Counted from the stretch's first letter, positions 60,178-63,812 are shown. The stretch: 64,000 bases of DNA from Desulfurococcaceae archaeon (GCA_038888155.1 JAWAJB010000001.1:128001-192000), one strand, 5' to 3'. The notes: generated by a model not told the origin, from the sequence alone. Numbers and translations are program-made.

Positions 60178-61419
60178 TTACACCTCTACGTATTCTTCAT
60201 TATAGTCTGGCGTTAGTTTTATTTTTGAGACCTTGAGAACTTCAACCTTCCCTGTGTACTTTGTCCTGAGCAGTACTTCCCTCGTCTCGAAGTTAAATTT
60301 TTCAATTATACAAGGGTAGTCGAATTCGCCTAATTGCCCTACAGCACAGTAGAGCCCCTTCTCTACACCGTATTGGTGAAGCTTAACCCTCTCATAGTTA
60401 TGCCTCTTGAGCTCCTCGCTGCTGTACCCCTTAATGGACCCGTAAAGGTTAAGAGATCCAAATAGCCTAGAGGCGTAAAGTACCTTTCCATCTACATAGT
60501 TAGAAATTGTAGCCGCGTTAACCTCTAGGCCGTGTAACAGGGGGAGGCCCTGCACTATTACGCTGTTTATTTTAGATTTAACAATAGGGGCTCCCTCTAG
60601 GAACTCGCTGTACTTTGAGCTTCTCAAATTTCTCCTCTCTTCCCGACTGCGGACTTTCCTGTGAACAGGCGCCCTAACCTCATAAACACTTATATTGAAC
60701 TCTGAATAGCGGGCGAAGAGACCTTTTAGCTCTTCTCCTACTACGATAATGGCGTCTGGCCTGAACATCTCTATAAGGCTGTTCTTATAGTCTATGGCGC
60801 GTTCATCCTTAACCCATCCATCTGTGTCGAGCAAGATATAGTGGAAGCCGTCTTTGTTGGCAACTTCTACGAGCCTCCTGACTCCACTTATAATAGCCCA
60901 AGTGTGGGCCTGAGGTTTAACATCTCCTATGAATACCATTTTATTGGGCTTAACTTCGCTGACCCAGTAAACTGGGCTATATGCGTAGCCAAGTGAAACA
61001 AACCCAGGAGGACCGATGTCAGCCTGCCCTATATCGCTGTCTATTACTGCCGCCTTTATTCCACTGGATAGCATGGTGTTGAGCATTAATGTAATAAGCG
61101 AAGTTTTACCGCAATCTGTGCAGCCGAGGACTGCTACTCTCCTTAGTCCCTTGCTAAGTATGTCCTGCACTATTTGCTTTTTTTCTTTATACGGATCTAC
61201 ACTGTCAAGCCTCTGCACTTGCTCTTCACTAATTAAAGTTATATCTAAGTCGCACAGGTCAACGGCTGTAGCTACGTAGTTCCTAGCCTTGTGGACAACA
61301 AAGCTTTCACCTTCGCTAATTACCTTGCCGTGGACATCGAGGCGCCCCACTTTAACGGAGACGGACATTGGGCCGAAAAGCTTAACGGCGTCGCCCTTAG
61401 ATAGCCTAAGAGATGGCGT
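60178..61419 (-). CDS. Clp1/Nol9-type polynucleotide 5'-hydroxyl kinase; probable non-canonical ACG start at 61419
   Basis: G.TD.GKTS, D.DIGQ.DIGPPG, DTDGW, RS.EERR..R; N-terminal domain sequence continues 17 codons upstream of the ATG at 61368. Confidence 0.85.
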   Translation of the reverse strand, partial: TPSLRLSKGDAVKLFGPMSVSVKVGRLDVHGKVISEGESFVVHKARNYVATAVDLCDLDITLISEEQVQRLDSVDPYKEKKQIVQDILSKGLRRVAVLGCTDCGKTSLITLMLNTMLSSGIKAAVIDSDIGQADIGPPGFVSLGYAYSPVYWVSEVKPNKMVFIGDVKPQAHTWAIISGVRRLVEVANKDGFHYILLDTDGWVKDERAIDYKNSLIEMFRPDAIIVVGEELKGLFARYSEFNISVYEVRAPVHRKVRSREERRNLRSSKYSEFLEGAPIVKSKINSVIVQGLPLLHGLEVNAATISNYVDGKVLYASRLFGSLNLYGSIKGYSSEELKRHNYERVKLHQYGVEKGLYCAVGQLGEFDYPCIIEKFNFETREVLLRTKYTGKVEVLKVSKIKLTPDYNEEYVEV

Positions 61420-62067
61420 TTAAACCACCTCTACGCCTTTGCTGAGGGCAATCTTGTATGCTGCATAAATGTCTCTATGCCTAAATGGCTTAAGCCCTTT
61501 CAACCTCCTAGACGAGTAAATTGCCTCTTCAATTCTCCTCTTCCTTGGAGAAGTTTCCGCTTCGTCTACTAACTCTATAGATGAAAGGTTGAATTTTTTC
61601 TTCAAAAACTCTATGATATTAATAGACTTAGGGCCTGCGCCTATTTTAATCTTAACTTTTTCAAATGGAATGCAGCTGAGAACATAAGAGAGGTCGTCCT
61701 CTAATTCCCTAAGCCCTCCCTCCCCGTAAAAAATCAGCTGATCATCACCTAGAAAAACATAGCTGAGAACGGATCCTGGATCGATGCCCATAACTATGTT
61801 CGCGTAGCCCCCAATCATATGGGAGGCGAGGATAGCCTCCTCTACCTTCCTGCAGGACTTATCTGGGTCATAAACTACGAGGAGATCTCCACGGCCTGAG
61901 AGCTCTTTAAGGACGAGGTTAAAATCGGTGTAGACGACGCTGCTGTAAGGCACCTTGTCGCTCGTGTAATAGTGTTGGAATAGGAGGTCACGCCTCCTAA
62001 GAACGCCTAACACTTTTAAAAACCACTTCGGATCGTAAATCGCGATAACTAGAGCTCTCCTCTGCAA
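61420..62067 (-). CDS. Uncharacterised protein with C-terminal RNase H-like (YqgF/RuvX-like) domain
   Basis: MGIDPG, IKIG.G, VDEAETS, D..AA..IA motifs. Confidence 0.6.
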   Translation of the reverse strand: MQRRALVIAIYDPKWFLKVLGVLRRRDLLFQHYYTSDKVPYSSVVYTDFNLVLKELSGRGDLLVVYDPDKSCRKVEEAILASHMIGGYANIVMGIDPGSVLSYVFLGDDQLIFYGEGGLRELEDDLSYVLSCIPFEKVKIKIGAGPKSINIIEFLKKKFNLSSIELVDEAETSPRKRRIEEAIYSSRRLKGLKPFRHRDIYAAYKIALSKGVEVV

Positions 62068-62134
62068 AACTCCCCTACCAGCTGTTTTTAACTAATAACC
62101 CATGTACGCTTTTTAGATTTCTAGGTGATGCCTT

Positions 62135-62767
62135 ATATACAGTGCCTACAGCGGAAGCCGAGAGCTAGATAAACTCATAGATAGCTCTTCTGCTGTGCTT
62201 TTCTACGGTCCCGCTGGAGCTGGTAAGACAGCTATATTGTTAACTGTCGCAAGCAATTTGTGTAGCTTTCATTTCTGTATTTACATATCAACTGAAGAAA
62301 CTCTTCACTACGACCGCATCTCTAGGGCAATCAACGCGTACGATAAAACATTGTTCGCAGAGGCGTACGATATGAACACCCTACTGAGGGTTGCAATTGC
62401 GACATCGGTGCTTAAGCCCAAGTTTATATTTGTGGATAGCGTTAATGCGCCAATGCGAGTAGAAGCTCGCAGAGAGACTACAACAACTAAGCAATCGTTT
62501 ATTATCAGCTTATTACTTGAAACTGTTAGAGAGCAGGGCGGAAAGCTGTTCGCATCTGCCCAAGTAAGGGTTGGAGAGGACGGAACGCTAGAGGCGTCCG
62601 GCATGAAGCTGTTTGACTACTACTTCGATACCATAGTAGGTGTATTTATTGGAGAGGGAGGAGTAAGATATATTAAACCCGTTAAAACAGGCACTAGAGT
62701 TGACTTCAACGAGATTGTATTCCGAATAACAGAGACTGGTGTCTCTTGGCTTGAAGGAAATTATTGA
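62135..62767 (+). CDS. RecA-superfamily ATPase (RadB/aRadC-like); probable non-canonical ATA start at 62135
   Basis: SGSRELDKLI upstream of called GTG, Walker A GPAGAGKT, ISTEE, Walker B FVDS, conserved Q. Confidence 0.75.
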   Translation: MYSAYSGSRELDKLIDSSSAVLFYGPAGAGKTAILLTVASNLCSFHFCIYISTEETLHYDRISRAINAYDKTLFAEAYDMNTLLRVAIATSVLKPKFIFVDSVNAPMRVEARRETTTTKQSFIISLLLETVREQGGKLFASAQVRVGEDGTLEASGMKLFDYYFDTIVGVFIGEGGVRYIKPVKTGTRVDFNEIVFRITETGVSWLEGNY

Positions 62768-63266
62768 CTACGCGATGTGGACTATAAAGTATTACTTGCC
62801 TCCAATGATCGCAAACGCTACGCCAGTTCTAATAAGGGGCACTACGCCAATAGATGGCGGGCGCTACCTTCGAGACGGAAAACCCATATTCGGTAAAAAT
62901 AAAACGTGGGAGGGCTTTATAGCTGGAACCATAGAGGCATATATTGCGGGAGCCTGTCTGGGGATCATTTTCTCTGATTACGCCTTGCCGCTGTTATCTT
63001 TGGGGGCAGGCTTATCTGCCTTATTTGGGGACTTAATGGGGGCCTTCATAAAGAGGCGCGCGTCTATCCAGCCGGGGGATCCCGCGCCAATTCTAGATCA
63101 ACTGGACTTCGCTCTTGCCGCAACTGGATACTACTACGCGTTTGGCGTAAACGAGGTAATGGCGCAGCCAACTTATATAATTTTGACCCTCATTCTAGTT
63201 ATAGCTCTCCACATAGCTACAAATAGAGCTGCGTATGCGCTAGGTTTAAAACACACGAAATTCTAG
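62739..63266 (+). CDS. carS: CDP-archaeol synthase
   Basis: P.MIANATP, PID.G, FG.NKTWEG, GDL.GAFIKRR, P.LDQLDF, H..TN..AY. Confidence 0.93.
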   Translation: MSLGLKEIIDYAMWTIKYYLPPMIANATPVLIRGTTPIDGGRYLRDGKPIFGKNKTWEGFIAGTIEAYIAGACLGIIFSDYALPLLSLGAGLSALFGDLMGAFIKRRASIQPGDPAPILDQLDFALAATGYYYAFGVNEVMAQPTYIILTLILVIALHIATNRAAYALGLKHTKF

Positions 63267-63321
63267 GTTTAAAAGGTATATTTATTTTATATAAGGGGAA
63301 AAGAGTAAAGGGGGATGCAAG

Positions 63322-63612
63322 CTGGCTAAGTATCCCAAAACGATAGCTACTTATTGCCCTAAGTGTAGAGCGCATACAGATCACTCCGTGGCTATATATA
63401 AGCAGGGCAAGAGAAGAAGCCTAGCAGAAGGCGAGAGAAGATATGACAGAAAGAAGGAAGGATATGGCTCTAAGAGAAAGCCTGAGCAGAAGAGATTTGC
63501 TAAAACAACCAAGAAAGTTGTCCTAAAGCTTAAGTGCAACAAGTGCGGGTACATAGTGCACAGAAGGGGCATTAGGCTTAAAAAGGCTGAACTAACAGAG
63601 GTGGCCAGGTAA
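63322..63612 (+). CDS. rpl44e: 50S ribosomal protein L44e; probable CTG start at 63322
   Basis: In-frame upstream extension [23 protein letters not shown] then YKQGKRR, GYG, KTTKK, CNKC. Confidence 0.95.
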
Positions 63613-63812
63613 TGAGGAAGAGAAGAATACTTATACCAATGCCGAGGAGCAGGTTCTACAGAGTGGTCTGCAAAAACTGCGGCGCTGAGAACATTGTCTT
63701 CAGCCACGCCACTTTTCCAGCTAGGTGTAAAGTCTGTGGAGTTAGCTTGTTAACAACGGCAGGAGGAAAAGTAAAGATAGCAAACGCTGAAGTTGTTGCA
63801 GAGCTCGGGTAA
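63612..63812 (+). CDS. rps27e: 30S ribosomal protein S27e
   Basis: P.PRSRF.RV.C..C....IVFSHA....C..C...L..GGK. Confidence 0.95.

Follow-up and report, generated by a model that had tools for sequence, protein, structure and literature searches.

The AUU start codons of Escherichia coli infC and pcnB, together with other rare non-canonical bacterial starts, are among the nearest described counterparts of the start codons considered here. We analysed 64,000 nucleotides (nt) of one strand from a hot-spring Desulfurococcaceae archaeon (GCA_038888155.1 JAWAJB010000001.1:128001-192000; this whole stretch is called the window below), in which three conserved genes at 60.2-63.8 kb, encoding a Clp1-like P-loop kinase, a RadB/KaiC-like P-loop ATPase and ribosomal protein L44e, appear to begin with ACG, ATA and CTG respectively. 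The likeness to the bacterial starts lies in a codon with one mismatch placed behind a Shine-Dalgarno (SD) sequence and probably decoded, less efficiently, by the usual initiator tRNA. In bacteria fidelity depends on IF3 and fMet-tRNA, whereas here it would depend on aIF1, aIF1A and aIF2 with Met-tRNAi; moreover, the bacterial examples are single autoregulated genes, whereas here about 1% of genes, some of them with ACG, appear to be involved. To our knowledge, ACG is absent from the start codons of NCBI table 11.

Several other systems offer points of comparison. The start efficiency of all 64 codons has been measured in E. coli (bioRxiv 10.1101/063800). In Deinococcus deserti, non-canonical initiation codons were confirmed by N-terminal proteomics, as reported in PMC2830850; there, as here, prokaryotic housekeeping genes have starts other than ATG, GTG and TTG and annotation was misled, but that organism is a bacterium with protein evidence, whereas ours is an archaeon and the evidence is comparative. 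Eukaryotes initiate at near-cognate codons (CUG, ACG, AUU, AUA and others) under the control of eIF1, as two papers describe (PMC4705826; PMC5666671). The factors are homologous (e/aIF1, e/aIF2) and the set of tolerated codons is the same; the eukaryotic machinery scans for a codon in Kozak context, whereas here SD pairing would fix the codon, mostly 7 nt after GGUG. For archaea, the accessible portions of reviews give AUG, GUG and UUG only (PMC7531240; PMC4705826), Sulfolobus aIF1 is reported to discriminate against non-canonical codons (PMC6237735; PMC8211752), and in a Haloferax ribosome profiling study near-cognate codons made up about 30% of the putative alternative start sites and were set aside (PMC7261190). 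These archaeal accounts share SD-led initiation and the same factors with our locus, but in their accessible parts they name no primary conserved genes, such as those of MCM or L44e, that start on CTG, ACG, ATA, ATT or ATC. A literature search, with subscription journals outside its coverage, found no description of primary archaeal genes that depend on near-cognate codons.

Proposed near-cognate starts of three conserved genes

We consider it likely, with a probability of roughly 0.72, that ACG, ATA and CTG are the real translation starts of the Clp1-like, RadB-like and L44e genes. What the comparisons directly support is a genuine sequence, conserved N-termini, frames that are closed upstream, a correctly spaced SD and, in relatives, canonical codons at the same position. 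The locus holds six genes, two on the minus strand and four on the plus strand, in an order that is conserved within the genus. The elements concerned are listed here, with SD strength given as the energy of the duplex with the 16S tail in kcal/mol.

60178..61419, minus strand: Clp1-like P-loop kinase gene, 413 codons from ACG, stop included; Pfam CLP1_P, E = 1e-37
61417..61419, minus strand: ACG, proposed start of the Clp1-like gene, directly after the TAA of the upstream gene
61425..61431, minus strand: SD GAGGTGG, within the last codons of the upstream gene; 6 nt from GGTG to ACG; duplex -12.7 kcal/mol
62123..62128, plus strand: SD AGGTGA; the in-frame TGA within it (62126-62128) is the upstream stop of the ATPase frame
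62128..62130, plus strand: out-of-frame ATG (-1 relative to the ATPase), part of GGTGATG; opens a 14-codon frame only
62135..62767, plus strand: RadB/KaiC-like P-loop ATPase gene; proposed ATA start at 62135-62137, 7 nt after GGTG
63309..63316, plus strand: SD-like AGGGGGAT before the L44e gene; duplex -9.1 kcal/mol
63322..63612, plus strand: ribosomal protein L44e gene; proposed CTG start at 63322-63324; Pfam Ribosomal_L44

The conserved N-termini of these three genes have no ATG, GTG or TTG ahead of them. Counted back from the proposed start, the frame is closed after 0 codons in the Clp1-like gene, 2 in the ATPase gene and 9 in the L44e gene, and no canonical codon intervenes; the stop-to-stop frame of the Clp1-like gene opens with the ACG itself. 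The first canonical codons come well inside the proteins: an ATG at 61368-61366 (codon 18) in the Clp1-like gene, a GTG at codon 23, directly before the Walker A motif, in the ATPase gene, and a GTG at 63388-63390 (codon 32), past the CPKC zinc knuckle that forms the first CxxC, in the L44e gene. Residues upstream of these codons are identical to those of a sister species (genome G012) at 10/16 positions in the Clp1-like protein and 17/22 in L44e. Clp1-like homology to relatives begins at residue 2, and the ATPase can be aligned from residue 2. Spacing to the SD is 6, 7 and 7 nt for ACG, ATA and CTG respectively, and canonical starts peak at 6-7 nt after GGTG. An earlier sequence-only reading of the window had placed the three codons where we find them, behind strong SDs, and had also noted many TTG and GTG starts, which agrees with our count over 38 comparable window genes (TTG 15, ATG 13, GTG 3).

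The same reading proposed tabulating the codon at the orthologous position, and for two of the genes the outcome is uniform. The codon homologous to the ACG is canonical in 15/15 alignable relatives (ATG 10, TTG 5) and is followed by CCN; the SD is present as GAGGT(G/A/T) in 14/15 of them and as AAAGTG in L026. The codon homologous to the CTG is canonical in 15/15 same-genus loci (TTG 7, GTG 4, ATG 4), where the start region reads NTG GCN AAR/AGR TAY CCN, while in four more distant loci the canonical start comes one codon later; the place of the SD carries AGGGG or AGGTG in relatives. The ACG and CTG of the window are derived states, seen among the relatives examined only in the assembly that contains the window's organism (G000). 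The tabulation turned out differently for the ATPase, whose ATA is itself conserved in frame in many relatives, most of which also have an in-frame ATG or GTG 2-4 codons upstream at which they would start. In many of these the leader reads (A/G)TG GTG (A/G)TG CTT ATA in frame, and relatives with GTGATGCTTATA have in frame the ATG that corresponds to the one at 62128; the G000 leader, GTGATGCCTTATA, has one extra C, which puts the GTG-ATG out of frame. The ATPase frames of G012 (TGA TAG CTT ATA) and of one other species are likewise closed upstream, with ATA 7 nt after GGTG.

For the RadB-like gene alone, initiation might instead take place at the out-of-frame ATG at 62128, followed by a +1 shift into the gene frame, as seems to be so in the aRF1 genes of the order, where a conserved out-of-frame ATG opens a mini open reading frame (ORF; see the final section). 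The ATG does stand one base out of frame just before the ATPase, at a place where relatives have ATG or GTG in frame. It abuts GGTG, however, at a spacing of 0, whereas the ATA lies at the optimal 7 nt, and its frame (ATG CCT TAT ATA CAG TGC ...) offers no slippery codon followed by a stop, the first stop coming 14 codons on. In addition, the dihydroorotate dehydrogenase gene of G000 has the same AGGTGATGCCTTAT with an ATC at 7 nt. We regard such a shift as very unlikely and return to the ATA as the probable start.

Support from independent contigs

Logan contigs of four other runs (X2, X3, X5 and X9) were aligned to 61200-63500 of the window, and these independent contigs show 0 differences from the window sequence. 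The CTG is bridged by contigs of X2, X3 and X5, which come from two studies. The ACG is bridged by X2 and by a 315-nt contig of the metatranscriptome run X9, and it is also covered in X3, where 30 nt flank it to one side. Only X2 bridges the ATA/SD site; one X3 contig begins at 62130 and one X5 contig ends at 62137. Contig depths are low (3-7), and depth and uncovered parts are uninformative either way. Despite the low depth, sequencing error is untenable as an explanation for ACG and CTG. Three independent errors all landing on start codons had been judged less likely from the sequence, and the identity of independent contigs, at the ATA site that of X2, excludes them.

An error of sequencing or assembly, or RNA editing of ACG to AUG, would restore canonical codons, and the G000 assembly is indeed a draft and a mixed metagenome bin. 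The probability of either is close to nil: the contigs without differences come from other samples and another study, and editing would be unable to make AUG from CUG, AUU or AUC. The X9 contig reads ACG with no C-to-U change, which points the same way, although it is a single contig from an RNA run whose library may have carried over DNA.

Candidate near-cognate starts across the genome and the order

The window's organism accounts for about 1.25 Mb (contigs C1-C6) of the 2.42 Mb G000 assembly (contigs C1-C134), and the genome-wide counts for G000 are restricted to these six contigs. Their protein identity to G012 is about 58-69%, and they act as a single organism. The assembly as a whole is a mixed bin with two 16S genes that are only 81% alike (complete on C31, partial on C4); contigs C29, C71, C76, C80, C88, C92, C94 and C98 have 99-100% protein identity to G012, and many small AT-rich contigs have few or almost no relatives. 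We compared the whole G012 genome with G000 through stop-to-stop ORFs and reciprocal best hits, which left 985 pairs after filtering. A first genome-wide screen was mostly noise, with about 200 matches in both genomes that were shadow ORFs of conserved genes or conserved promoter and SD DNA; an overlap filter was then added, and the aligned residues of the partner were required to be coding.

At least 12 of about 990 genes in G000 appear to have a near-cognate start (CTG, ACG, ATA, ATT or ATC), as do about 15 genes in G012; in both species these genes lack a usable canonical start. The cases named in the analysis are listed by species.

G000, Clp1-like kinase: ACG
G000, RadB-like ATPase: ATA
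G000, L44e: CTG
G000, ABC ATPase: ACG
G000, PEP synthase: ATT, or the next codon ACG, aligned with ATG/TTG in the loci of 12 relatives
G000, MCM with intein: ATA, aligned with GTG/ATG in 11 same-genus loci
G000, CYTH protein: ATT; Pfam match from residue 2
G000, dihydroorotate dehydrogenase: ATC
G000, 116-codon gene: CTG
G000, 340-codon membrane protein: ACG
G000, 301-codon membrane protein: ATA
G000, 200-codon gene: ACG; the G012 orthologue also has ACG
G012, RidA, TatD, NuoC and flavin reductase: CTG each
G012, flavoprotein: ACG; directly follows the upstream TAA, with its SD inside the upstream gene
G012, ABC ATPase: ATA
G012, methyltransferase: ATT

The MCM gene (G000:C2:178785-182492, L126) carries an intein (Pfam Intein_splicing; 1234 residues). 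The G002 copy of MCM also has one (1236 codons), and most MCM genes of relatives are about 700 codons long.

Canonical starts provide the background to these cases. G000 codons homologous to SD-led canonical G012 starts are ATG in 206, TTG in 163 and GTG in 86 of 662 genes, and the reverse comparison of G012 codons with G000 starts gives ATG 205, TTG 134 and GTG 118 of 631. A formal rule for orphan N-termini was run in both directions over 975 G000-G012 reciprocal best pairs; it called for 4 or more aligned residues identical in both species ahead of the first ATG, GTG or TTG, a partner that is coding there and a protein identity of at most 90%. Orphans were placed in the SD class when the top SD score was at least 8 and an in-frame codon lay 5-8 nt after GGTG. 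In G000 the rule yielded 13 orphans, 9 of them with a qualifying SD, and 8/9 carry CTG, ACG, ATA, ATT or ATC (binomial p about 6e-7). In G012 it yielded 21 orphans, 10 with a qualifying SD and 9/10 near-cognate (binomial p about 1e-7). The null consisted of internal SD-like sites (4880 in G000 and 6227 in G012), where the near-cognate share is 12.8% and 13.1%. The ABC ATPase of G000 was missed by the rule: a stronger AGGAG lies further upstream, and its ACG stands 7 nt after GGGTG. Among the rejected candidates, small orphans with no SD were shadows of tRNA, rRNA or other RNA genes (GRDLNPRG and similar), a transposase fragment and a gene fragment, and a KsgA pair was dropped when its upstream 'conservation' proved to be the overlapping end of the neighbouring gene.

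A second test required no homology. We scored codon 3 of ORFs that reach at least 150 codons and have the TGA of GGTGA as their upstream stop, because the TGA inside GGTGA is in frame with a start codon at 7-nt spacing. G000 has 58 such ORFs, of which 37 have a canonical codon 3; where no canonical codon occurs in codons 1-8, codon 3 is near-cognate in 7/7 (ATA 3, ACG 2, ATT 1, ATC 1). In G028, a genome from another family of the order of which 919 kb of 1.32 Mb was examined, 26 of 34 ORFs are canonical at codon 3 and 3/3 of those with no canonical codon have ATA. Across the aligned cases, a GGTG-type core (GGGGG in L44e) precedes the codon by 5-8 nt, mostly 7 nt, in 21/22, a distance at which canonical starts also peak with a wider spread. 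With residues numbered from the near-cognate codons, Pfam domains start between residues 2 and 23, those of CYTH and TatD at residue 2. The sequence-only reading expected standard gene callers to truncate such proteins, and a call confined to ATG, GTG and TTG would indeed remove these conserved N-termini.

Taken together, these comparisons suggest that roughly 1% of the genes in the window's organism and its sister species, and some in another family, start at near-cognate codons. Such codons appear to arise repeatedly and at least some of them to persist, since the ACG and CTG of the window are derived in G000 only and one ACG start is common to two species.

The derived state of the ACG and CTG could also be taken to mean that the three genes are damaged, either silenced by a start mutation or made in truncated form from the next canonical codon, in a locally relaxed or recently mutated region; three changes in 2.2 kb would be unlikely under a uniform rate. 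Against this, all three frames are open to full length, their Pfam matches are complete and their SDs are kept. Starting L44e at codon 32 would lose its first CxxC, and starting the ATPase at codon 23 would make it begin at Walker A. The near-cognate cases include the gene of MCM, which is essential, and the ACG start common to the G000 and G012 orthologues indicates that such codons can persist. The same letters are found in samples from two studies. Damage is quite unlikely on this evidence, and we continue with the near-cognate codons as working starts.

Initiation machinery and proposed mechanism

In the mechanism we propose, a strong SD would pair with the 3′ end of 16S rRNA (...GGAUCACCUCCU), and this pairing would put the codon 6-7 nt after GGUG into the P site. 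The ordinary initiator Met-tRNA (anticodon CAU) would then accept the codon with one mismatch, for which an SD at the optimal distance may compensate. Output would presumably be below that from AUG.

The 16S gene was located by an Rfam family search, a 3′-end motif having given no match. Its 3′ end on C31 reads ...GGATCACCTCCT; the bin has two 16S genes, and the C31 copy may not be that of the window's organism. Among 69 ARAGORN tRNAs in the whole bin, no initiator-type tRNA with an anticodon other than CAU was found. The only initiator-type tRNA found (A1:U72) has anticodon CAU, and those with anticodon CAG are ordinary long-armed Leu tRNAs. At the initiator tRNA (G000:C1:243055-243327, minus strand), the ARAGORN prediction contains about 200 nt of inserted sequence at a non-canonical position, which may be a long intron or a mis-call. 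The G000 aIF1 can be aligned without irregularity to aIF1 and eIF1 of solved structure, and its conserved SUI1 motifs are intact, among them LQGDQR, a motif that contains residues whose mutation relaxes stringency in yeast. The altered aIF1 that had been suggested for this organism is not supported by this comparison.

The wider idea behind that suggestion is that the window's organism alone has lost start-codon proofreading through an altered aIF1 or aIF2. In its favour, near-cognate starts occur genome-wide in G000, and TTG is very frequent, at 163/455 conserved starts. However, G012 has the same kind and number of cases (9/10 by the formal rule, about 15 in all), three ATA cases are seen in G028, a member of another family, the proportions of ATG, TTG and GTG are similar in G012 and G000, and the G000 aIF1 looks ordinary. 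Such a loss is decidedly unlikely; near-cognate starts look like a low-frequency property of the whole lineage and not a defect of one organism. Relaxed, SD-dominated initiation is thus partly supported, in that near-cognate codons placed by SDs occur genome-wide, but the same rate in the sister species speaks against an unusual organism. Nor are the cases confined to the window region, as they are found elsewhere on contigs C1-C6 of G000, in G012 and in G028.

Coupling of termination and reinitiation has been described at overlapping or abutting archaeal gene pairs (PMC10666635). The Clp1-like gene resembles these pairs, as its ACG directly follows a TAA and its SD lies inside the upstream gene, and the same is true of the G012 flavoprotein gene; in both, ribosomes terminating at the abutting TAA may also reinitiate on the ACG. 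The TAA and ACG of the Clp1-like gene are adjacent on the same strand and the 315-nt X9 contig spans the junction, although one contig falls short of proof that they share a transcript. Most other cases, including L44e, MCM and the ATPase, lack an abutting upstream gene, and coupling therefore cannot account for near-cognate starts in general.

Several observations count against the proposed starts. Initiation at near-cognate codons, the insertion of methionine there and a reduced efficiency are all something we infer from sequence comparison. SDs are stronger in near-cognate genes (median -9.8 vs -7.4 kcal/mol), a difference that is partly circular, SD strength having helped to find these genes. 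One formal-rule match (C4:+133222) is probably a conserved promoter with the real ATG further on. The homology-free test is noisier in G012, where 54 of 93 ORFs are canonical at codon 3 and 5/16 of those with no canonical codon are near-cognate. The three cases in 2.2 kb are more clustered than a uniform 1% rate predicts; in a post hoc simulation, 3/9 near-cognate genes within 2.5 kb had P = 0.00075. The remaining points concern the RadB-like gene. A one-base insertion after the ATG would be an equally simple description of its DNA, a candidate TATA-like box at 62110-62119 would place the transcript start near or after its SD, and contigs of two of three DNA runs break within 8 nt of its start site, which may reflect a strain variant there or only low depth.

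A more speculative reading, which we rate as rather unlikely, is that near-cognate starts 7 nt from GGUG are a selected tuning layer in these hyperthermophiles and not merely tolerated mutations. On this reading, genes of replication, repair and the ribosome would have a low or condition-dependent output, set for instance by temperature or by the amount of aIF1. The three neighbouring genes at a divergent promoter at 62.1 kb, which could be tuned together, would fit a tuning layer, as would the recurring SD-spacer-start strings described below and the ACG start conserved between two species.

Consequences for annotation

The usual gene callers are, as far as we know, limited to ATG, GTG and TTG. 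If about 1% of genes need near-cognate starts order-wide, their products are truncated in public protein sets or missing from them. Among the genes affected are those of the MCM replicative helicase, a ribosomal protein and enzymes of central metabolism. The comparison further suggests that the near-cognate set of the eukaryotic scanning system is also accepted by the aIF1/aIF2 system when the SD stands at its optimal distance.

Neighbouring genes and further observations

The three other genes of the locus have canonical start candidates, and one of them served as a local control.

61420..62067, minus strand: conserved gene with no Pfam family; canonical TTG at 62067-62065, aligned with the TTG of G012; TAA at 61422-61420
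62775..63266, plus strand: CDP-archaeol synthase gene (Pfam CarS-like); ATG at 62775, with GTG and TTG upstream as further start candidates; local control
63612..63812, plus strand: ribosomal protein S27e gene; canonical ATG overlaps the L44e stop (TAATG)

Identical strings of 14-17 nt covering SD, spacer and start precede unrelated near-cognate genes, which is above chance for about 27 start regions. AGAGGTGGTTTAAACGC occurs twice, at the Clp1-like gene (window 61417-61433) and at the G012 flavoprotein gene (G012:C4:11711-11723). The AGGTGATGCCTTAT of the ATPase (window 62123-62136) recurs at the dihydroorotate dehydrogenase gene (G000:C2 around 193640), and GGTGAAGAAGTACGATA is found at two G000 genes, at C2(-)233673 and C4(-)71289. 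A dedicated 'cassette' signal is unconvincing, as the 13-mer GGTGGTTTAAACG is found at 4 places in 31 genomes; one of its G001 copies lies before a zinc-ribbon gene with an ATG 16 codons on, and the other before no long frame.

The aRF1 genes of the order show a different kind of start. Release-factor autoregulation by frameshifting was stated to be absent from archaeal homologues in a 2012 paper (PMC3521657), and the accessible part of a 2021 review of archaeal recoding does not mention an aRF1 frameshift. An in-frame start is lacking from the aRF1 gene of G012 and from that of most of 30 relatives spread over the order (G012:C4:85700-87133, L143; L184-L213). In its place is a 3-codon mini-ORF that runs from an SD-led ATG in the -1 frame to a stop, ATG AGT TTT TAG C, with the variants ATG AGC TTT TAG C, ATG AGT GTT TAG and once ATG AGT CTT TGA C. 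The last of these, the leader of one genome, we take to match the E. coli prfB motif. Slipping by +1 on TTT would bring the ribosome into the conserved aRF1 frame, (V/A)FSY..EEQ, and by its sequence the leader looks like an instance of prfB-type autoregulatory +1 frameshifting. The mini-ORF is retained at the aRF1 gene of G000 (G000:C1:479039-479785, L195, outside the window), although an ATG in frame is present there as well.

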